DNA of 64,000 bases, taken from NCBI RefSeq assembly GCF_044324785.1, contig NZ_CP172127.1; one strand, given 5' to 3'. The position numbers were made by a program, and so were the translations under genes. The notes under the pieces were generated by a model. It was not told the origin of the DNA. It did no database searches and worked only from the letters and a program-made list of their open reading frames with translations. This document shows, in pieces, positions 1,443 through 59,194 of this stretch (position 1 is the first letter of the stretch; each line of letters begins with the position of its first letter). Source of the DNA: Escherichia coli. GTDB taxonomy: Bacteria > Pseudomonadota > Gammaproteobacteria > Enterobacterales > Enterobacteriaceae.

Positions 1443-3605
1443 ATGACAGAAAAAGTAAAACAACATGCCGCTCCGGTAACGGGCAGTGATGAAATCGATA
1501 TTGGTCGCCTGGTCGGCACCGTCATTGAAGCGCGCTGGTGGGTAATTGGCATCACCGCCGTATTCGCCCTCTGTGCCGTGGTTTACACCTTCTTCGCCAC
1601 GCCGATATACAGCGCCGACGCACTGGTACAAATCGAACAAAGCAGCGGCAATTCGCTGGTGCAGGATATCGGATCGGCATTAGCCAACAAACCGCCTGCA
1701 TCGGACGCCGAGATCCAGTTGATTCGTTCGCGTCTGGTGCTTGGTAAAACGGTGGACGATCTCGACCTCGATATTGCGGTGAGCAAAAACACGTTCCCGA
1801 TTTTCGGTGCGGGCTGGGATCGCCTGATGGGACGTCAGAACGAGACGGTAAAAGTGACCACCTTTAACCGTCCGAAAGAGATGGCGGATCAGGTGTTTAC
1901 GCTTAATGTGCTGGACAACAAAAACTACACCCTGAGCAGCGACGGCGGCTTTAGCGCCCGTGGGCAAGCGGGCCAGATGCTGAAAAAAGAAGGCGTCACA
2001 CTGATGGTTGAAGCCATTCACGCCAGCCCGGGCAGTGAGTTTACCGTCACCAAATACTCCACGCTGGGGATGATCAATCAACTGCAAAACAGCCTGACGG
2101 TAACGGAGAACGGCAAAGATGCTGGCGTTTTGAGCCTGACTTATACTGGAGAAGATCGCGAACAGATCCGCGACATTCTTAACAGTATCGCCCGTAACTA
2201 TCAGGAACAAAATATTGAGCGCAAATCGGCGGAAGCGTCGAAAAGCCTCGCTTTCCTCGCGCAACAGTTACCGGAAGTACGTAGCCGCCTCGATGTTGCC
2301 GAAAACAAACTGAATGCCTTCCGTCAGGATAAAGATTCAGTTGATCTGCCGCTGGAAGCGAAAGCGGTGCTCGATTCGATGGTGAACATCGACGCGCAGT
2401 TGAACGAACTGACCTTTAAAGAGGCGGAAATCTCCAAGCTGTACACCAAAGTTCACCCGGCGTACCGCACGCTGCTGGAGAAACGGCAGGCGCTGGAAGA
2501 CGAAAAAGCCAAACTTAATGGTCGCGTAACGGCGATGCCGAAAACCCAGCAGGAGATTGTGCGCCTGACCCGCGATGTCGAGTCTGGTCAGCAGGTCTAT
2601 ATGCAACTGCTGAATAAAGAGCAGGAGCTGAAAATCACCGAAGCCAGCACCGTCGGCGATGTGCGCATTGTTGACCCGGCAATCACTCAGCCTGGTGTGC
2701 TGAAACCGAAGAAAGGGTTGATTATCCTCGGTGCAATTATCCTCGGCCTGATGCTCTCTATCGTGGGTGTACTGCTGCGCTCGTTGTTTAATCGCGGCAT
2801 TGAAAGCCCGCAGGTGCTGGAAGAACATGGCATCAGCGTCTATGCCAGCATCCCGCTGTCGGAGTGGCAGAAAGCGCGCGATAGCGTCAAAACCATCAAA
2901 GGGGTTAAACGCTATAAACAGAGCCAGCTACTGGCGGTGGGGAATCCAACCGATCTGGCGATTGAAGCCATCCGTAGTCTGCGTACCAGTCTGCACTTCG
3001 CGATGATGCAGGCACAGAACAATGTGTTGATGATGACCGGGGTTAGCCCGTCAATCGGTAAAACCTTTGTCTGCGCCAACCTGGCGGCGGTGATCAGCCA
3101 GACCAATAAACGGGTGTTGTTGATCGACTGCGATATGCGCAAAGGCTACACCCACGAGCTGTTGGGCACCAATAACGTCAATGGCCTGTCGGAAATTCTG
3201 ATTGGTCAGGGCGATATTACTACCGCTGCTAAACCGACCTCTATTGCCAAATTTGACCTGATCCCGCGCGGTCAGGTACCGCCAAATCCTTCTGAACTCT
3301 TGATGAGCGAACGCTTTGCCGAACTGGTGAACTGGGCGAGTAAAAACTACGACCTGGTGTTGATTGATACGCCGCCGATTCTGGCAGTGACCGATGCGGC
3401 AATTGTTGGTCGTCATGTCGGAACCACGTTAATGGTGGCGCGTTATGCGGTCAACACATTGAAAGAAGTGGAAACCAGCCTGAGCCGCTTTGAGCAAAAC
3501 GGTATTCCGGTGAAAGGGGTGATTCTGAACTCCATCTTCCGCCGCGCCAGCGCGTATCAGGATTATGGCTATTACGAATACGAATATAAGTCGGATGCGA
3601 AATAA
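1443..3605 (+). CDS. wzc: Tyrosine autokinase / polysaccharide co-polymerase Wzc
   Basis: 720 aa from ATG at 1443 (MTEKVKQ...); C-terminal Tyr-rich tail YQDYGYYEYEYKSDAK; the track ORF at 1407 is a GTG-initiated upstream extension. Confidence 0.9.
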   Translation: MTEKVKQHAAPVTGSDEIDIGRLVGTVIEARWWVIGITAVFALCAVVYTFFATPIYSADALVQIEQSSGNSLVQDIGSALANKPPASDAEIQLIRSRLVLGKTVDDLDLDIAVSKNTFPIFGAGWDRLMGRQNETVKVTTFNRPKEMADQVFTLNVLDNKNYTLSSDGGFSARGQAGQMLKKEGVTLMVEAIHASPGSEFTVTKYSTLGMINQLQNSLTVTENGKDAGVLSLTYTGEDREQIRDILNSIARNYQEQNIERKSAEASKSLAFLAQQLPEVRSRLDVAENKLNAFRQDKDSVDLPLEAKAVLDSMVNIDAQLNELTFKEAEISKLYTKVHPAYRTLLEKRQALEDEKAKLNGRVTAMPKTQQEIVRLTRDVESGQQVYMQLLNKEQELKITEASTVGDVRIVDPAITQPGVLKPKKGLIILGAIILGLMLSIVGVLLRSLFNRGIESPQVLEEHGISVYASIPLSEWQKARDSVKTIKGVKRYKQSQLLAVGNPTDLAIEAIRSLRTSLHFAMMQAQNNVLMMTGVSPSIGKTFVCANLAAVISQTNKRVLLIDCDMRKGYTHELLGTNNVNGLSEILIGQGDITTAAKPTSIAKFDLIPRGQVPPNPSELLMSERFAELVNWASKNYDLVLIDTPPILAVTDAAIVGRHVGTTLMVARYAVNTLKEVETSLSRFEQNGIPVKGVILNSIFRRASAYQDYGYYEYEYKSDAK

Positions 3606-3611
3606 CGACGC

Positions 3612-3666
3612 CTGCATTCGCACCGCCCCGTAGGCCGGATAAGGCGTTCACGCCGCATCCGGCAAG
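3612..3666. repeat. REP (repetitive extragenic palindromic) element in the wzc-wcaA intergenic region
   Basis: gccccgtaggccggataaggcgttcacgccgcatccggcaag matches the enterobacterial REP consensus. Confidence 0.6.
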
Positions 3667-3697
3667 CAAACCAGCTCATAAGCCGGGAGAACAACCT

Positions 3698-4537
3698 ATG
3701 AAAGACAATCCGCTGATCTCAATCTATATGCCGACCTGGAACCGCCAACAACTGGCGATTCGGGCGATAAAATCGGTCCTGCGCCAGGACTATAACAACT
3801 GGGAGATGATCATCGTGGATGATTGCTCCACCTCCTGGGAACAACTCCAACAGTACGTCACCGCCCTCAACGATCCGCGTATCACCTACATTCACAACGA
3901 CATTAACAGCGGGGCGTGCGCGGTACGTAACCAGGCGATTATGCTGGCGCAAGGGGAATATATCACCGGGATCGATGATGATGATGAATGGACACCCAAC
4001 CGTCTGAGCGTCTTCCTCGCCCATAAACAGCAACTGGTCACACACGCCTTTTTGTACGCTAACGACTACGTTTGCCAGGGCGAGGTCTACTCCCAGCCGG
4101 CAAGTTTGCCGCTGTATCCCAAATCGCCGTATTCACGCCGCCTGTTCTACAAACGCAATATCATTGGCAATCAGGTCTTTACCTGGGCGTGGCGTTTCAA
4201 AGAGTGTTTGTTCGATACCGAACTGAAAGCGGCACAGGATTACGACATTTTCCTGCGGATGGTGGTGGAGTACGGCGAACCGTGGAAAGTAGAAGAGGCG
4301 ACGCAGATCCTGCATATCAATCACGGTGAAATGCAGATCACCTCGTCACCGAAAAAATTCTCCGGATACTTCCACTTTTACCGCAAGCACAAAGACAAAT
4401 TTGACCGCGCCAGCAAAAAATATCAGCTGTTTACCCTCTACCAGATCCGCAATAAACGCATGACCTGGCGCACTTTGCTGACGCTGCTGTCGGTGCGTAA
4501 CGGCAAACGTCTGGCTGATGGTATTCGGGGGCGCTAA
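3698..4537 (+). CDS. wcaA: Colanic acid glycosyltransferase WcaA (GT2 family)
   Basis: 279 aa, matches K-12 WcaA; conserved position. Confidence 0.9.
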   Translation: MKDNPLISIYMPTWNRQQLAIRAIKSVLRQDYNNWEMIIVDDCSTSWEQLQQYVTALNDPRITYIHNDINSGACAVRNQAIMLAQGEYITGIDDDDEWTPNRLSVFLAHKQQLVTHAFLYANDYVCQGEVYSQPASLPLYPKSPYSRRLFYKRNIIGNQVFTWAWRFKECLFDTELKAAQDYDIFLRMVVEYGEPWKVEEATQILHINHGEMQITSSPKKFSGYFHFYRKHKDKFDRASKKYQLFTLYQIRNKRMTWRTLLTLLSVRNGKRLADGIRGR

Positions 4538-4539
4538 AG

Positions 4540-5028
4540 ATGCTGGAAGATCTGCGCGCCAACAGCTGGAGTTTACGCCCGTGCTGCATGGTTCTTGCCT
4601 ATCGCGTTGCTCATTTTTGTTCGGTGTGGCGCAAAAAGAACGTCCTCAACAATATTTGGGCGGCCCCGCTGCTGGTGCTGTATCGCATTATCACCGAATG
4701 CTTTTTCGGTTATGAAATCCAGGCAGCCGCAACCATTGGTCGCCGTTTCACTATCCATCACGGCTATGCCGTAGTGATCAATAAAAACGTGGTCGCGGGG
4801 GATGATTTCACCATTCGCCACGGCGTCACTATCGGCAATCGTGGAGCCGATAACATGGCATGTCCACACATTGGCAACGGCGTCGAACTCGGTGCCAACG
4901 TTATTATTCTTGGTGATATCACGCTTGGTAACAATGTCACCGTGGGCGCGGGCAGCGTGGTGCTCGACTCTGTCCCGGACAACGCGCTGGTGGTGGGAGA
5001 AAAAGCGCGAGTGAAGGTAATTAAATGA
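4540..5028 (+). CDS. wcaB: Colanic acid acetyltransferase WcaB (hexapeptide-repeat family)
   Basis: 162 aa, matches K-12 WcaB. Confidence 0.9.
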   Translation: MLEDLRANSWSLRPCCMVLAYRVAHFCSVWRKKNVLNNIWAAPLLVLYRIITECFFGYEIQAAATIGRRFTIHHGYAVVINKNVVAGDDFTIRHGVTIGNRGADNMACPHIGNGVELGANVIILGDITLGNNVTVGAGSVVLDSVPDNALVVGEKARVKVIK

Positions 5029-6242
5029 ATATTCTGCAATTTAATGTGCGACTGGCGGAAGGCGGGGCAGCAGGTGTGGCGTTAGATCTCCACCAGCGTG
5101 CGCTGCAACAGGGGCTGGCGTCACATTTTGTCTACGGCTACGGCAAAGGCGGCAAAGAGAGCGTCAGCCATCAAAACTATCCGCAGGTCATCAAACATAC
5201 GCCGCGGATGACCGCGATGGCGAACATTGCCCTGTTTCGTCTGTTTAATCGCGATCTGTTCGGCAATTTCAATGAGTTATATCGCACCATTACTCGCACA
5301 CCGGGTCCGGTGGTCCTGCATTTTCATGTGCTGCACAGCTACTGGTTGAATCTTAAGAGCGTGGTGCGCTTTTGCGAAAAAGTGAAAAACCACAAACCGG
5401 ATATCATTTTGGTCTGGACGTTACACGATCACTGGAGCGTTACCGGACGCTGCGCCTTTACCGACGGTTGTGAAGGCTGGAAAAAGGGCTGCCAGAAATG
5501 CCCGACCTTAAATAATTATCCGCCGGTGAAGATTGATCGCGCACACCAGCTGGTGGCGGGCAAACGCCAGTTATTCCGTGAGATGCTGGCGCTGGGCTGT
5601 CAGTTTATTTCCCCCAGCCAGCATGTGGCTGATGCTTTCAATAGTCTGTACGGTCCAGGGCGTTGCCGGATTATCAATAATGGCATTGATATGGCAACCG
5701 AAGCGATTCTGGCGGACTTGCCTCCGGTGCGCGAAACCCAGGGCAAGCCGAAAATCGCGGTGGTGGCGCATGATCTGCGTTACGACGGCAAAACTAACCA
5801 GCAACTGGTACGCGAGATGATGGCGCTGGGCGACAAAATCGAACTGCATACCTTTGGTAAGTTCTCGCCGTTCACCGCTGGCAACGTGGTTAATCACGGC
5901 TTTGAAACTGACAAGCGCAAGTTGATGAGCGCGCTCAATCAGATGGATGCGCTGGTATTCAGTTCTCGCGTCGATAACTACCCGCTGATTTTGTGTGAGG
6001 CGCTATCGATTGGCGTGCCGGTGATTGCCACCTATAGCGACGCGGCGCGGGAAGTGTTGCAAAAATCCGGCGGTAAAACCGTCAGCGAAGAAGACGTGCT
6101 GCAACTGGTGCAGTTAAGCAAACCGGAAATCGCGCAGGCGATATTTAGTACCACGCTGGCTGAGTTCAGCCAACGCAGCCGCGCCGCCTACAGTGGACAA
6201 CAGATGCTGGAGGAGTATGTCAACTTCTATCAGAATCTGTAG
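5025..6242 (+). CDS. wcaC: Colanic acid glycosyltransferase WcaC
   Basis: 405 aa, matches K-12 WcaC; 4-nt overlap with wcaB. Confidence 0.9.
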   Translation: MNILQFNVRLAEGGAAGVALDLHQRALQQGLASHFVYGYGKGGKESVSHQNYPQVIKHTPRMTAMANIALFRLFNRDLFGNFNELYRTITRTPGPVVLHFHVLHSYWLNLKSVVRFCEKVKNHKPDIILVWTLHDHWSVTGRCAFTDGCEGWKKGCQKCPTLNNYPPVKIDRAHQLVAGKRQLFREMLALGCQFISPSQHVADAFNSLYGPGRCRIINNGIDMATEAILADLPPVRETQGKPKIAVVAHDLRYDGKTNQQLVREMMALGDKIELHTFGKFSPFTAGNVVNHGFETDKRKLMSALNQMDALVFSSRVDNYPLILCEALSIGVPVIATYSDAAREVLQKSGGKTVSEEDVLQLVQLSKPEIAQAIFSTTLAEFSQRSRAAYSGQQMLEEYVNFYQNL

Positions 6243-14012: not shown

Positions 14013-14113
14013 TAGTTGAATAATCAACCGGATTAATTCTCCGGTAAATAACGACAAAAACAAAATTGGCCGTTTCGGTCAGGGCCAACTACTGCCTGAA
14101 AAAGGGTAACGAT

Positions 14114-23539: not shown

Positions 23540-23781
23540 TGCAGACGAGTCAGAGAAAAAAGGACCAGGTTGGACTACGATTATTCGGAAAGAGGTACTG
23601 ATTAAATTATCAGTATGCGGAATTCCGAGTAATCCGAGTAACCCAGATGCTGATGGTGTGTAGTGTTATCCTAAGGTTTAAGCAAAGTTATGCGGAACTA
23701 AGCTTTGGTATATAGCCATAACGTTTGGCTAACCTATGGCAATAATTTACGCACTATCAGCCACTTAGAGGTAGGAAAAGA

Positions 23782-34682: not shown

Positions 34683-35849
34683 ATGAAAATAACAATTTCA
34701 GGAACAGGTTATGTTGGTCTTTCAAATGGTATTCTGATTGCGCAAAATCACGAAGTGGTTGCACTGGATATCGTTCAGGCCAAAGTGGACATGCTTAACA
34801 AGAAGCAGTCACCGATTGTTGATAAGGAGATTGAAGAGTATCTGGCGACTAAAGATCTCAATTTCCGCGCTACGACAGATAAGTATGACGCGTATAAAAA
34901 TGCCGATTACGTTATTATTGCCACGCCTACCGATTATGACCCGAAAACAAATTATTTTAATACCTCAAGCGTGGAAGCGGTCATTCGCGATGTGACAGAA
35001 ATTAATCCTAATGCTGTCATGGTGATTAAATCTACAATTCCGGTAGGTTTCACCAAATCAATTAAAGAACGTCTGGGTATCGATAACCTTATTTTCTCTC
35101 CGGAATTTCTCCGTGAAGGTAAAGCCCTTTACGATAATCTCCATCCTTCACGTATTGTCATTGGTGAGCGTTCAGAACGCGCAGAACGTTTTGCTGCGTT
35201 GTTACAGGAAGGGGCGATTAAGCAAAATATCCCGACCCTGTTCACCGATTCAACCGAAGCAGAAGCGATTAAACTTTTCGCTAATACCTATCTGGCGATG
35301 CGCGTAGCATACTTTAATGAACTGGATAGCTATGCAGAAAGTTTAGGTCTGAATACTCGCCAGATTATCGAAGGCGTTTGTCTCGATCCGCGTATTGGCA
35401 ACCATTACAACAATCCGTCGTTTGGTTATGGTGGTTATTGTCTGCCGAAAGATACCAAGCAGTTACTGGCGAACTACCAGTCTGTGCCGAATAACCTGAT
35501 TTCGGCAATTGTCGATGCTAACCGCACACGTAAAGACTTTATTGCCGATGCCATTTTGTCACGCAAACCGCAAGTGGTGGGTATTTATCGTCTGATTATG
35601 AAGAGCGGTTCAGATAACTTCCGTGCGTCTTCCATTCAGGGGATTATGAAGCGTATCAAGGCGAAAGGCGTTGAAGTGATCATCTACGAACCGGTGATGA
35701 AAGAAGACTCATTCTTCAACTCTCGCCTGGAACGTGATCTCGCGACCTTCAAACAACAAGCCGACGTCATTATCTCTAACCGTATGGCAGAAGAGCTTAA
35801 GGATGTGGCAGATAAGGTATACACCCGCGATCTCTTTGGCAGTGACTAA
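34683..35849 (+). CDS. ugd: UDP-glucose 6-dehydrogenase
   Basis: 388 aa from ATG at 34683 ([16 protein letters not shown]...); matches E. coli Ugd. Confidence 0.9.
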
Positions 35850-44103: not shown

Positions 44104-44248
44104 TTTGTTATTCCTCTTTAAACCTGTCTGAACCGTTATCAACCGCGCAATAAAAAAGCCCCCGGAAGGTGATCTTCCGGGGGCTTTCTCATGCGTTCAT
44201 GCACCACTGGAAGATCTGAATGTCTTCCAGCACACATCGCCTGAAAGA
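44104..44248 (-). promoter_or_regulatory. his operon attenuator, including the rho-independent terminator hairpin (about 44150-44186)
   Basis: Between hisL and hisG; minus-strand hairpin agcccccggaag/cttccgggggct followed by TTTTTTATT. Confidence 0.85.
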
Positions 44249-44299
44249 CTAGTCAGGATGATGGTGATGATGGTGGTGTTTAAATTGAACGCGTGTCAT
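44249..44299 (-). CDS. hisL: his operon leader peptide
   Basis: Minus-strand ORF ATG ACA CGC GTT CAA TTT AAA CAC CAC CAT CAT CAC CAT CAT CCT GAC TAG = MTRVQFKHHHHHHHPD (seven consecutive His codons). Confidence 0.95.
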   Translation of the reverse strand: MTRVQFKHHHHHHHPD

Positions 44300-46525: not shown

Positions 46526-46791
46526 AGAAAAATTATTATGACAAGCCTCTCATTCTCTTGTCATTTCCCCCCCATTTAGGCACAATGCGCCGCTGTCAAA
46601 AAATGACTAAAAACCGACGTTTCATCAGCGTCGGTTATTTTTTGCTTCAAACCAATCATTCATACCAAGAGGCCGGGCTTCGTACCGGATAGATATTTAC
46701 TAAAAATCGACAGTTGTTGTCGCTGAGGAATCCAAAAAAATGGGGCAATTTTTTGCTTACGCGACGGTTATCACCGTAAAGGAGAATGACC

Positions 46792-48150: not shown

Positions 48151-48167
48151 TCATCTTTTCTAATAAT

Positions 48168-48207
48168 AAACCGGAGTCGAATGAATATTTGGCTCCGGTT
48201 TTTTTAT
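48168..48207 (+). terminator. Rho-independent terminator downstream of plaP
   Basis: Stem aaccggag/ctccggtt followed by a T7 run. Confidence 0.55.
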
Positions 48208-48328
48208 TCTTTTTTATCGATATCCTCATTAATAACCATTTGTTCTAATTTAGAGAATTTGGTTATTGGTCTGCATTCCACCAGTCATGAATAATTTCCC
48301 TATTAACATTCATCTGGTTAATTAATTT

Positions 48329-49387
48329 ATGTTTTCAATGATATTAAGCGGGCTAATTTGTGGTGCTCTGCTGGGATTTGTCATGCAGCGTGGGCGTTTT
48401 TGCCTGACAGGTGGTTTTCGCGATATGTATATCGCAAAAAATAATCGCATGTTTTACGCCTTGCTGATTGCAATTTCGGTACAAAGCGTGGGGGTTTTTG
48501 CGTTAATTCAGGCGGGCCTACTGACTTACGAAGCCGGGGCGTTCCCGTGGCTTGGTACTGTTATAGGTGGGTATATCTTCGGGCTGGGAATTGTTCTGGC
48601 GGGTGGATGTGCCACCGGGACCTGGTATCGCGCGGGTGAGGGATTGATCGGCAGTTGGATCGCGCTTTTCACTTATATGGTGATGAGTGCGGTGATGCGT
48701 TCTCCACATGCCAGTGGTTTAAATCAAACCTTGCAGCACTACAGTACTGAACATAACTCTATTGCTGAGACTTTTAATTTGTCTGTGTGGCCGTTGGTTA
48801 CCGTTTTGCTGGTGATAACGCTCTGGGTGGTGATGAAAGAGTTGAAGAAGCCAAAACTCAAAGTCGCGACCTTACCGCCGCGCCGAACCGGGATCGCTCA
48901 TATTCTGTTTGAAAAACGCTGGCATCCCTTTGTCACTGCTGTACTCATCGGTTTGATTGCGCTTTTAGCCTGGCCCCTGAGTGAAGCAACCGGACGCATG
49001 TTTGGGTTAGGAATCACTTCCCCAACGGCCAATATTCTGCAATTTCTGGTCGCGGGTGACGTGAAATACATTAACTGGGGCGTTTTCCTGGTGTTAGGGA
49101 TCTTCGTGGGGTCATTTATTGCAGCCAAAGCGAGCCGTGAGTTCCGCGTTCGCGCAGCTGATGCACAAACAACATTACGTAGCGGGTTAGGTGGTGTACT
49201 GATGGGCTTCGGTGCCAGTATTGCAGGTGGTTGCTCTATCGGTAATGGACTGGTTATGACTGCAATGATGACCTGGCAGGGCTGGATTGGCCTTGTATTT
49301 ATGATTCTCGGAGTCTGGACTGCGTCCTGGCTTGTGTATGTTCGACCGCAGCGTAAGGCGCGACTGGCAACTGCTGCGGCAAATTAA
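48329..49387 (+). CDS. yeeE: Inner-membrane sulfur-compound (thiosulfate) transporter family protein YeeE
   Basis: 352 aa multi-TM protein, matches K-12 YeeE. Confidence 0.85.
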   Translation: MFSMILSGLICGALLGFVMQRGRFCLTGGFRDMYIAKNNRMFYALLIAISVQSVGVFALIQAGLLTYEAGAFPWLGTVIGGYIFGLGIVLAGGCATGTWYRAGEGLIGSWIALFTYMVMSAVMRSPHASGLNQTLQHYSTEHNSIAETFNLSVWPLVTVLLVITLWVVMKELKKPKLKVATLPPRRTGIAHILFEKRWHPFVTAVLIGLIALLAWPLSEATGRMFGLGITSPTANILQFLVAGDVKYINWGVFLVLGIFVGSFIAAKASREFRVRAADAQTTLRSGLGGVLMGFGASIAGGCSIGNGLVMTAMMTWQGWIGLVFMILGVWTASWLVYVRPQRKARLATAAAN

Positions 49388-49400
49388 GTAAGGTGTAAAG

Positions 49401-49628
49401 ATGGCGATTAAAAAGCTGGATGTGGTGACGCAGGTCTGTCCGTTTCCACTCATAGAAGCAAAAGCAGCACTGGCAGAAATGGCCAGCGGCGATGAGTTGG
49501 TAATTGAGTTTGATTGCACCCAGGCAACTGAAGCAATCCCACAGTGGGCGGCAGAAGAAGGACATGCCATCACCGATTATCAGCAGATTGGCGATGCAGC
49601 GTGGAGCATCACCGTTCAAAAAGCCTGA
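49401..49628 (+). CDS. yeeD: TusA-like sulfurtransferase YeeD
   Basis: 75 aa with CPxP motif (VCPFPL); matches K-12 YeeD; adjacent to yeeE. Confidence 0.85.
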   Translation: MAIKKLDVVTQVCPFPLIEAKAALAEMASGDELVIEFDCTQATEAIPQWAAEEGHAITDYQQIGDAAWSITVQKA

Positions 49629-49670
49629 CTCAACATTGTCCTCCGCCGTACCAGCGGCGGAGGCTTCAAA

Positions 49671-51098
49671 TTAGACGATCTCTTCCGCGTACTGCCAAAG
49701 CGCTTTTAACAGCGCCACTTTCTCTTTGTTATCGGCATATTGTTGTGCCAGCATCTGCAATTCATCTGCATAACCCTGTAAAAACTCTGGCGTGAAGACC
49801 TGGCGGCGGTGCTCCAGCCAGCGTTGCTGCTCGGCATAATCCAGCGTCCCCGGGAAGTTGCGCGCCCGATAATTGAACAACAGCTTTTCAATTCGTTTAT
49901 CAACAAAAGTGATATCCAGTGCCGGTAAATTACGCGGCTCGGTTTCCAGCACAATTTTCATTGCTGCACGATCGGCGTCACTGAAAAAGCCATTATAAAG
50001 CTGTGCATCCACATTATCTGAAGGTGTAAACGGTTCGGCTTCCGCGAATATCGCTACCACTTTTTCACGCACTTGCGGATTTTCACGCAGAATTTTTAGG
50101 TTATCGAGGCAATGCTGACGATTAATTCCCAGTCGGTCGGCATCTTCCGGGCGTAGCGTATTCGCCTGGGCCAGTACCGGACATTTATTGATATGCACCA
50201 GCTTAACCGGAACGGCGGCGTTATCGCCAAGATCGGCTTTTGCGGTATATAAACGCTCGCGCAATGTGTCGCTATCCAGTTCCAGTAATGGCGAAATGTC
50301 TCCTGCCAAATCCACCATAATTACGGCATTGCGATTTTCAGGATGCCACGCCAGCGGTGCTACCCAGCTGGTATTGCCGCGCCATGCCCCAAACATTCCG
50401 GAAACGTGAACCAGGGGTTTCATCTGCGGAACATCAATCAACGCCATTAGTTTGTGTTTATTACGATGGGTAAAGAGATAATCAAACAGGCGCGGCTGGC
50501 GCGTTTTTACCAGTTTTGCCATCGCAATAGTGGCGTACACATCAGCCATCGCATCGTGTGCGTTGCTATGTTCAATACCATTCGCTTTGGTTAAATGCTC
50601 AAGGCGAAAGCTCGGTAGACCGTCATCATTTTCAGGCCAGTTTATTCCTTCCGGGCGCAGGGCATAACAGGCACGCATAACATCCAGCAAATCCCAGCGC
50701 GAGTTATCATGCTGCCAGCTCCAGGCGTAAGGATCGTAGAAATTACGATAAAAAACGTTGCGTGTGACTTCGTCGTCGAAACGCACATTGTTGTAGCCCA
50801 GAATACAGGTCTTCGGTACGGTAAAAAGCGAGTGAATACGGGCGGCAAACGCGGCTTCGTTTTCTCCTTTCGCCCGTGCTTCCTGCGGGGTAATACCGGT
50901 AATTAATACTGCTCCAGGCTGGGGTAAATAGTCATCCGCGGGCTTGCAGTAAAAGACTTCGGGTTCGCCGATGACATTGAATTCGCTATCGGTGCGAATG
51001 GCTGCGAACTGTGCAGGGCGATCTAACGCGGGGTGCGTGCCAAAGGTTTCGTAATCGTGAAACAAAAAGGTAGATTGTTGCTTACCGTCATTCATCAT
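49671..51098 (-). CDS. sbcB: Exodeoxyribonuclease I
   Basis: 475 aa from ATG at 51098 (MMNDGKQQSTFLFHDYETFG...); DEDDh exonuclease motif; matches E. coli SbcB. Confidence 0.95.
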   Translation of the reverse strand: MMNDGKQQSTFLFHDYETFGTHPALDRPAQFAAIRTDSEFNVIGEPEVFYCKPADDYLPQPGAVLITGITPQEARAKGENEAAFAARIHSLFTVPKTCILGYNNVRFDDEVTRNVFYRNFYDPYAWSWQHDNSRWDLLDVMRACYALRPEGINWPENDDGLPSFRLEHLTKANGIEHSNAHDAMADVYATIAMAKLVKTRQPRLFDYLFTHRNKHKLMALIDVPQMKPLVHVSGMFGAWRGNTSWVAPLAWHPENRNAVIMVDLAGDISPLLELDSDTLRERLYTAKADLGDNAAVPVKLVHINKCPVLAQANTLRPEDADRLGINRQHCLDNLKILRENPQVREKVVAIFAEAEPFTPSDNVDAQLYNGFFSDADRAAMKIVLETEPRNLPALDITFVDKRIEKLLFNYRARNFPGTLDYAEQQRWLEHRRQVFTPEFLQGYADELQMLAQQYADNKEKVALLKALWQYAEEIV

Positions 51099-51306: not shown

Positions 51307-52473
51307 TTGAAACGCCGTCTTATTATTGCTGCTTCTTTGTTCGTTTTTAACTTATCGTCTGGTTTTGCGGCGGAAAACATTCCTTTTTCACCTCAGCCAC
51401 CAGAGATTCATGCCGGGTCCTGGGTACTGATGGATTACACCACCGGACAGATCCTCACCGCGGGTAATGAGCATCAACAGCGCAATCCCGCCAGCCTGAC
51501 AAAGCTGATGACGGGCTATGTCGTGGATCGCGCTATCGATAGTCATCGCATTACGCCAGACGATATTGTCACCGTGGGGCGCGATGCGTGGGCGAAAGAT
51601 AATCCGGTGTTTGTCGGTTCTTCACTGATGTTTTTGAAAGAGGGCGATCGCGTATCGGTACGTGATTTAAGCCGTGGTTTAATTGTGGATTCCGGAAATG
51701 ACGCTTGTGTTGCTCTGGCTGACTATATTGCCGGTGGGCAACGGCAGTTTGTTGAAATGATGAACAACTATGCCGAGAAGCTGCATCTCAAGGATACGCA
51801 TTTTGAAACAGTGCATGGTCTGGATGCACCTGACCAGCATAGCTCGGCTTATGATTTAGCCGTGCTTTCTCGCGCTATCATCCACGGCGAGCCCGAGTTT
51901 TATCATATGTACAGTGAGAAAAGCCTCACCTGGAACGGTATCACCCAGCAAAACCGTAACGGGTTATTGTGGGATAAGACCATGAATGTTGACGGCCTGA
52001 AAACGGGTCATACTTCTGGTGCCGGGTTTAATCTTATTGCTTCGGCTGTAGACGGGCAGCGTCGCCTCATTGCAGTGGTAATGGGTGCTGACAGCGCAAA
52101 AGGTCGTGAGGAAGAGGCAAGAAAATTACTGCGTTGGGGGCAACAAAACTTTACTACGGTGCAAATTTTGCACCGTGGGAAAAAGGTCGGTACGGAACGC
52201 ATCTGGTATGGTGATAAAGAAAATATCGCCCTGGGAACGGAACAAGAGTTCTGGATGGTGCTACCGAAAGCCGAAATTCCACATATCAAAGCCAAATATA
52301 CCCTTGATGGTAAAGAACTCACCGCGCCAATTAGCGCCCATCAACGGGTAGGGGAAATTGAACTTTACGACCGTGATAAACAGGTGGCGCACTGGCCGCT
52401 GGTTACCCTGGAATCTGTCGGGGAAGGCAGCATGTTTTCCCGGCTGAGTGATTATTTCCACCATAAGGCCTGA
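51307..52473 (+). CDS. dacD: D-alanyl-D-alanine carboxypeptidase (PBP6b)
   Basis: 388 aa from TTG at 51307; signal peptide; SxxK (ASLTK), SGN and KTG motifs; matches E. coli DacD. Confidence 0.9.
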   Translation: MKRRLIIAASLFVFNLSSGFAAENIPFSPQPPEIHAGSWVLMDYTTGQILTAGNEHQQRNPASLTKLMTGYVVDRAIDSHRITPDDIVTVGRDAWAKDNPVFVGSSLMFLKEGDRVSVRDLSRGLIVDSGNDACVALADYIAGGQRQFVEMMNNYAEKLHLKDTHFETVHGLDAPDQHSSAYDLAVLSRAIIHGEPEFYHMYSEKSLTWNGITQQNRNGLLWDKTMNVDGLKTGHTSGAGFNLIASAVDGQRRLIAVVMGADSAKGREEEARKLLRWGQQNFTTVQILHRGKKVGTERIWYGDKENIALGTEQEFWMVLPKAEIPHIKAKYTLDGKELTAPISAHQRVGEIELYDRDKQVAHWPLVTLESVGEGSMFSRLSDYFHHKA

Positions 52474-52559
52474 CCTTTCTTTTGCAGCAGACTGGCAGGA
52501 GTGCGAGTCTGCTCGCATAATCAACACTCATTCCTTGTGGTTTTAATATTGCAACTATA

Positions 52560-52575
52560 CTGTATATAAAAACAG
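52560..52575 (+). promoter_or_regulatory. LexA operator (SOS box) in the sbmC promoter
   Basis: CTGTATATAAAAACAG fits CTGT-N8-ACAG, 17 bp upstream of the sbmC ATG. Confidence 0.75.
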
Positions 52576-52591
52576 TATTAATGGAGGCGTC

Positions 52592-53065
52592 ATGAACTAC
52601 GAGATTAAGCAGGAAGATAAACGTACCGTTGCAGGTTTCCATCTTGTTGGCCCGTGGGAGCAGACGGTAAAGAAAGGTTTTAAGCAGTTGATGATGTGGG
52701 TAGATAGCAAAAATATCGTGCCGAAGGAGTGGGTTGCTGTCTATTACGACAATCCAGATGAAACACCCGCCGAAAAATTACGCTGCGACACCGTCGTGAC
52801 GGTACCGAATAACTTTACGCTCCCCGAAAACAGTGAGGGCGTCATTCTGACAGAAATTTCAGGTGGTCAGTATGCGGTGGCGGTGGCTCGTGTAGTCGGT
52901 GATGATTTTGCTAAACCCTGGTATCAGTTCTTTAATAGCCTCTTGCAGGACAGTGCTTATGAAATGTTACCAAAGCCCTGCTTCGAGGTTTACTTGAACA
53001 ATGGCGCGGAAGATGGGTACTGGGATATCGAAATGTATGTTGCGGTGCAGCCAAAACATCACTAA
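52592..53065 (+). CDS. sbmC: DNA gyrase inhibitor SbmC (GyrI)
   Basis: 157 aa, matches E. coli SbmC. Confidence 0.9.
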
Positions 53066-53262
53066 TTCATCTCAGGGCGGTGTGTTAACGCGAAGACCAC
53101 TCTTTTTTTGAAAGTGAAAAGAGTAAGATGCGCCTTTCAAATTTTTCGCTCCTGCCGGGAAATTACACCGTTCCCGGTATGTCCGTCGGATAACTCAGAG
53201 GCGCGCCTTCTGGCCGACAGATGTGTTATGAGCGCTTTTAATCTTCATTACGGAGTTTCTGC

Positions 53263-59118: not shown

Positions 59119-59194
59119 TGGCTCCTCTGACTGGACTCGAACCAGTGACATACGGATTAACAGTCCGCCGTTCTACCGACTGAACTACAGAGGA
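59119..59194 (-). tRNA. asnV: tRNA-Asn (GUU anticodon), asnV-equivalent by synteny
   Basis: 76 nt, reverse complement equals TCCTCTGTAGTTCAGTCGGTAGAACGGCGGACTGTTAATCCGTATGTCACTGGTTCGAGTCCAGTCAGAGGAGCCA; cloverleaf with GTT anticodon and encoded CCA. Confidence 0.95.

Follow-up and report, generated by a model that had tools for sequence, protein, structure and literature searches.

The LexA operator of sbmC in an Escherichia coli genome: sequence, conservation and promoter setting

Just ahead of sbmC, in a 64,000-nucleotide stretch of Escherichia coli DNA (here ‘the window’, always meaning the whole stretch), lies a short palindrome which raises a simple question. Is it where LexA binds and, if so, what would its occupancy deny to RNA polymerase? 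A preliminary description made from the letters of the window had taken it to be a LexA operator, consistent with SOS induction of the gene that follows. The answer is not one of novelty. The palindrome is the LexA operator that sbmC has long been known to have, a textbook and quite ordinary case, and as a discovery the known operator itself matters little; sbmC was recognised as an SOS gene as long ago as 1995, and no catalogue of the E. coli SOS regulon omits its LexA box. What the exercise does provide is a genuine, experimentally supported operator located from sequence alone, which may serve as a positive control, a site that can be tied to a full promoter layout and, as the only point outside the textbooks, the finding that mobile elements have inserted into this box in other E. 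coli genomes.

The box and the gene behind it

Read directly on the + strand, the 16-mer CTGTATATAAAAACAG occupies 52560-52575 (in context, TTGCAACTATACTGTATATAAAAACAGTATTAATGGAGGCGTCATG), and 16 bases separate it from the sbmC ATG at 52592, the A of which is 17 nt beyond the final G. This confirms both positions of the preliminary description, which had put the site at 52560-52575 and 17 bp upstream of the start, and its fit to CTGT-N8-ACAG is likewise borne out, with a palindromic core and an AT-rich spacer. Taken alone that criterion is within chance, since the window has one match where 0.65 would be expected and, of 100 shuffled versions, 45 had at least one. It is here that the most sceptical view finds its footing, namely that this is an AT-rich palindrome arisen by chance, or a mere −10 or TATA-like element, devoid of LexA function in this strain; an expectation of 0.65 such matches per 64 kb and the TATA-like spacer both speak for it.

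With the full 20 bp considered there is far less latitude. The LexA operator (SOS box) TACTGTATATAAAAACAGTA, at 52558-52577 and ending 14 bp before the ATG, agrees with the consensus TACTGTATATATATACAGTA at 18 of 20 positions (two mismatches), and none of 100 shuffles yielded any match within three mismatches of that consensus. With a symmetrised weight matrix derived from 17 other E. coli LexA sites (PMC3009722 Table 4) the 20-mer scores 26.9 bits, or 26.2 bits with the identical umuD site left out, and the same matrix gives it a heterology-index-like value of 2.2. By the exact score distribution, P is ~1-2e-10 per position with ~1e-5 such sites expected per window, and the runner-up in the window reaches 13.8-14.2 bits. 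A probability of this order, ~1e-10 at any one position, counts against a chance origin, as does the identity of the 20-mer to the umuD and K-12 sbmC operators.

Two lesser matrix hits elsewhere in the window, AACTGGATAGCTATGCAGAA inside ugd (35320-35339, 13.8 bits) and TACTGATTAAATTATCAGTA, a near-perfect palindrome in the intergenic DNA ahead of galF (23596-23615, 12.1 bits), are far under known operators and are probably due to chance.

The gene downstream, described at the outset as that of a gyrase inhibitor, proves to be just that. It is sbmC (gyrI), a 157-codon coding sequence at 52592..53065 (stop included, + strand), the product of which matches the NCBIfam equivalog NF007451 over its full length (residues 1-157 of 157) with 301.3 bits, the cut-off being 179, has 1JYH, ‘DNA gyrase inhibitory protein’, as its sole PDB match (aligned 1-157, E = 4e-106) and carries the Pfam GyrI-like domain PF06445 (113 bits). 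Genome annotation agrees: the 901-bp region 52300-53200 is matched in 5,419 of 5,426 complete E. coli genomes and is annotated dacD-sbmC. Neither lexA nor recA is within the 64-kb window; E. coli as a species carries both.

The window is chromosomal E. coli DNA and its gene order is colanic-acid cluster, O-antigen cluster, gnd-ugd-wzzB, his operon, yeeZ-yeeY-plaP and sbcB, followed by dacD, sbmC, yeeA, tmaR, cobUST, ldtA, tRNA-Asn genes and nac-cbl-yeeO. No genome in the collection is identical to the window, the closest complete one having 98.5% identity over 24 kb. Strain N3, the best match around sbmC, is 100% identical over 52300-53200 and differs in the O-antigen region and at 48152-49673; the O-antigen cluster of the window (about 24.9-33 kb) bears no relation to its N3 counterpart.

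Several other features of the window deserve brief record. In the O-antigen cluster the gene for the first glycosyltransferase is broken into two open reading frames (24993-26083), overlapping and in different frames, with a GT4 N-terminal domain at 24993-25634 and a GT1 C-terminal domain at 25571-26083; this suggests a frameshift, whether of a pseudogene or from an error of sequencing. Rfam matches at gathering score comprise algC RNA in the colanic-acid cluster (14060-14109), a JUMPstart element ahead of the O-antigen genes (24933-24971), the His leader (44150-44273), the sRNA STnc240 (46571-46645) and three tRNA genes (59122-59194, 61531-61603 and 63352-63424), which are tRNA-Asn in the annotation of strain N3 and are embedded in short repeats. 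By comparison with N3, an integrase after the last tRNA-Asn, at the end of the window, is frameshifted.

What the relatives of sbmC retain

Were the palindrome fortuitous, would its arms be kept where the DNA around them is free to drift? The 300 bp upstream of 73 loci with relatives of SbmC, one genome per species, were scanned with the matrix. Two distant outliers apart, the closest of these loci are from Escherichia (98%) and the most remote from Kosakonia (58%); between them come Citrobacter, Salmonella, Enterobacter, Lelliottia, Kluyvera, Leclercia, Raoultella and Klebsiella. The best hit is of at least 10 bits in 69 of the 73 and of at least 20 bits in 47, and the box ends 15-25 bp before the ATG in 68; in 644 control windows of 300 bp, drawn from these loci too, the maximum was 9.2 and 10 bits was never reached. 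Among 65 distinct sequences aligned on the box, positions T4, G5 and A7 of TGTAT and C16, A17 and G18 of ACAG are invariant. Within the box the information averages 1.39 bits per position and in the left flank 0.2 bits, a profile in which anchoring on the best matrix hit somewhat inflates the inside-box value, though not to invariance. The box is conserved in Enterobacteriaceae, and arm positions that are invariant while flanks drift are a further argument against a chance palindrome.

The four exceptions are L075, the Intestinirhabdus locus L067, in which the box is 167 bp upstream, and the two distant homologues. L075 (Escherichia sp. MOD1-EC7003) has lost the LexA box by deletion, at about 1470-1500 of the locus (...AAACATACTGATTGGAGGCGTCATG), and the SbmC match there ends at residue 82; sbmC may be decaying in this lineage.

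The left half-site has its own variants. It is GTGT, a C to G change, in Enterobacter and Lelliottia (TAGTGTAT; loci L028-L043, L052, L061, L062 and L074, at about 1457-1486 in each), and ATGT, a C to A change, in the Klebsiella/Raoultella group (ATATGTAT; loci L044, L047, L054, L056-L058 and L063-L066, again at about 1457-1486 in each). Boxes with a variant left half-site have lower matrix scores (10-24 bits), and the Enterobacter C to G change makes the −10 hexamer TATAGT.

Experiments with K-12 bear on function. The SOS box of K-12 sbmC is printed as TATACTGTATATAAAAACAGTATCA (PMC3009722 Table 4) and is the same 20 bp as in the window. With a heterology index of 2.8, sbmC is placed among the classical LexA-box genes of K-12, where AZT induces it 5.7-fold and where its expression after AZT is 9.5-fold lower in a non-cleavable lexA3 strain (PMC11228462). 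A promoter-GFP fusion of sbmC reacts to UV in two phases, from which the involvement of a second sigma factor was suggested (PMC5999292), and in reviews, with reference to Baquero 1995, sbmC counts as an SOS gene with additional induction in stationary phase. In Salmonella a single SOS box is 21 bp from the start of sbmC and damage induces the gene 3.55-fold; in K. pneumoniae SbmC protein is increased with ciprofloxacin.

LexA-dependent induction in the strain of the window, as envisaged in the preliminary description, is supported by the literature on an identical K-12 sequence, with K-12 identity, the published lexA3 dependence and the phylogenetic footprint pointing the same way. That lexA3-dependent induction is published for the very same sequence (PMC11228462) is the last of the arguments that leave a chance palindrome, or a mere TATA-like element, with scarcely any credibility. 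The site is, almost certainly in our estimation, the LexA operator of the E. coli sbmC/gyrI promoter, with occlusion of a proximal −10 and transcript start as the proposed mode of repression.

A proposed promoter in five blocks

Alignment of 35 orthologous upstream regions gives five conserved blocks with variable DNA between them: a CRP-S motif, TTG, TAnAnT, the LexA box and GGAGG. The last of these is the Shine-Dalgarno sequence (52583..52587, + strand), present in nearly all orthologous loci. The second and third would be the −35 and −10 elements, their spacing being as expected for such a pair. In this strain the putative −35 is TTGTGG (52535..52540, + strand), its TTG being the part conserved in the 35 regions, and the putative −10 is TATACT (52556..52561, + strand), which is preceded by C at 52555 and overlaps the first four bases of the 20-mer; the spacer is of 15 nt here and of 15-18 nt across genera. 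The two bases just 5′ of the 20-mer, which are outside the LexA motif, are also kept, the T in 62 of 65 sequences and the A in 55 of 65. With that C the hexamer reads CTATACT, a type of −10 that sigma-S favours; this fits the reported input of RpoS to sbmC.

The approximate start of the DNA-damage-induced sbmC transcript, from a UV tiling array, would be at 52566..52569 (+ strand), inside the operator. The array study gives a 100-nt upstream segment that begins AGGCCTGACC, corresponding to window 52466, and from this the induced start is placed near 52566; with the −10 at 52556-52561 a start would be expected 7 nt beyond it, near 52568, which agrees. On that basis the operator would extend from about −10 to about +10, as is usual where bound LexA excludes RNA polymerase. 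The supplements of the tiling-array study make no mention of sbmC. In a genome-wide map of start sites in uninduced cells (Kim 2012) none falls in the sbmC intergenic region, and its sole sbmC entry is an uninformative 2-read start inside dacD.

Further upstream is what appears to be an activator site for CRP of the CRP-S (Sxy-dependent) type, recognised here from a motif unique in the window together with its conservation across genera. Cameron and Redfield 2006 (PMC1635313) reported a CRP-S-like site at sbmC with 6-fold induction by Sxy, for which CRP and cAMP were needed, and earlier work cited there assigned the promoter a class I mechanism. The text of PMC1635313 prints no site sequence and for that reason we infer its core to be 52502-52517, within a site at 52499..52520. 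The core, TGCGAGTCTGCTCGCA, is TGCGA-N6-TCGCA and is the only such match in the window; the 22-bp CRP site has C at position 6 and G at position 17, as is characteristic of CRP-S, and lies at a class I distance. Across genera the motif is TG(C/T)GA-N6-(T/G)C(A/G)CA, then TA-T, and the distance from its core to the −35-like TTG is fixed at 17 nt. Its centre, ~58-62 bp upstream of the putative start, agrees with the reported class I mechanism.

A different geometry has nevertheless to be weighed. The sole match of a generic promoter scan of the + strand of the region is CTGGCA-18-CATAAT (52492-52521), the proximal promoter having gone unreported because its 15-nt spacer is outside the 16-18 range scanned. 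Should that distal pair be the promoter, with a start at ~52528, the operator, though a real LexA box, would lie at ~+31 to +50 and act chiefly as a downstream roadblock. Its standing as the only consensus promoter match on that strand, together with the retention of CATA-T and TGGC across genera, gives this arrangement a certain appeal, but the block so conserved falls on the published CRP-S site, and the class I mechanism reported for sbmC needs a start ~60 bp downstream of that site. Moreover the UV-induced transcript starts near 52566, TTG and TAnAnT are conserved at the correct spacing for a proximal promoter, and the published start-site map, albeit of uninduced cells, has no start near 52528. 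It is chiefly the work of Cameron and Redfield 2006 (PMC1635313) that ranks the distal promoter below the CRP-S/class I reading, and we regard a roadblock as improbable.

In the preferred arrangement, with a proximal promoter, events may be envisaged as follows. A LexA dimer would occupy the near-consensus palindrome and, since this overlaps both the TATACT −10 and the transcript start, bound LexA should keep RNA polymerase off. With DNA damage, RecA filaments would form and promote LexA self-cleavage, and the emptied operator would permit sbmC transcription; the protein so made binds gyrase and gives protection against gyrase poisons and DNA-damaging agents. Positive input to the same promoter would come from CRP-cAMP and Sxy at the CRP-S site ~60 bp upstream of the start. 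RpoS and H-NS would be further inputs according to the literature, in which they appear as sbmC regulators (Oh 2001, as related by a paper that cites it). The precise positions of −35, −10 and start are read from sequence, and steric occlusion as the mode of repression is probable to the extent that they are.

Directly after the dacD stop codon there is also a stable hairpin (52483-52517; −22.9 kcal/mol, z = −3.35) that has no U tract and the 3′ arm of which overlaps the CRP-S site. Its 5′ arm is not kept in Salmonella and some Citrobacter, and it may be a structure of the dacD 3′ end.

Mobile elements in the box, and the known operators

The box of the window is intact; in other E. coli genomes ISL3-family elements have entered it. 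A 127-bp intergenic query matched 5,416 genomes, in 270 of which the match covered less than 80% of the query, and in two partial-match examples that were examined it ends at window 52571, inside the box. Strain 28A18CPO003A has a 1,316-bp ISKox3-type element in its sbmC box, and ETEC TW10722 and Nissle 1917 have an ISEc53-type element of 1,884/1,885 bp that carries a ClbS/DfsB-family gene; in the loci compared, the elements are at 3599-4914 (L003), 3579-5462 (L004) and 3040-4924 (L079). The insertion point corresponds to window 52564-52571 and each element is flanked by an 8-bp target duplication, ATATAAAA, which is the exact N8 spacer; the ISKox3 and ISEc53 types are in opposite orientations. 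Junction queries found the ISKox3 type in 109 genomes and the ISEc53 type in 81, among them Nissle 1917 and ATCC 25922, so that at least 190 of 5,426 complete E. coli genomes have an ISL3-family element inside the sbmC box, a figure that is the junction-query total and to which ~80 further partial-match genomes do not contribute.

Such an insertion leaves only half-sites of the operator and parts sbmC from its CRP-S site, −35 and −10. In the Nissle type the ClbS/DfsB-family gene comes to lie directly downstream of the orphaned sbmC promoter, and no outward consensus promoter toward sbmC was found in the ISEc53-type element. Whether the AT-rich N8 spacer is a recurrent landing site for ISL3-family elements, entered at least twice, seems to us evenly poised; if it is, SOS and Sxy control of sbmC would be naturally polymorphic. 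No paper that treats sbmC together with ISL3 was found in the literature searched. Both Nissle 1917 and ATCC 25922 are widely used, and in them the insertion could alter the response of sbmC to quinolones, microcin B17 and other gyrase poisons.

How does the intact operator compare with those long studied? K-12 sbmC (gyrI, yeeB) shares with the window the whole 20-bp operator, its distance to the ATG and the CRP-S core, and has the same neighbours, dacD upstream and yeeA downstream. There are only two intergenic differences, A rather than T at window 52547 and T rather than C at 52579; both are outside the box, −10 and −35, and a functional change is not expected from them.

The operator of K-12 umuDC is exactly the same 20-mer, and the umuDC box is among the tightest LexA operators. 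The published heterology indices of the two are nonetheless 2.1 for umuD and 2.8 for sbmC (PMC11228462), a gap that presumably reflects how that source computed or delimited its sites. Induction by AZT is 56-fold for umuDC versus 5.7-fold for sbmC (PMC11228462), the gene and its promoter context being different in the two cases, and beyond what umuDC has, sbmC has the CRP-S/Sxy, RpoS and H-NS inputs. In Salmonella subspecies the sbmC loci have TACTGTATATAAGTACAGTA and CACTGTATATAAATACAGTG, 17 bp before the ATG; the SOS box of Salmonella enterica sbmC differs in its spacer and outer bases and has a higher published heterology index of 6.32.
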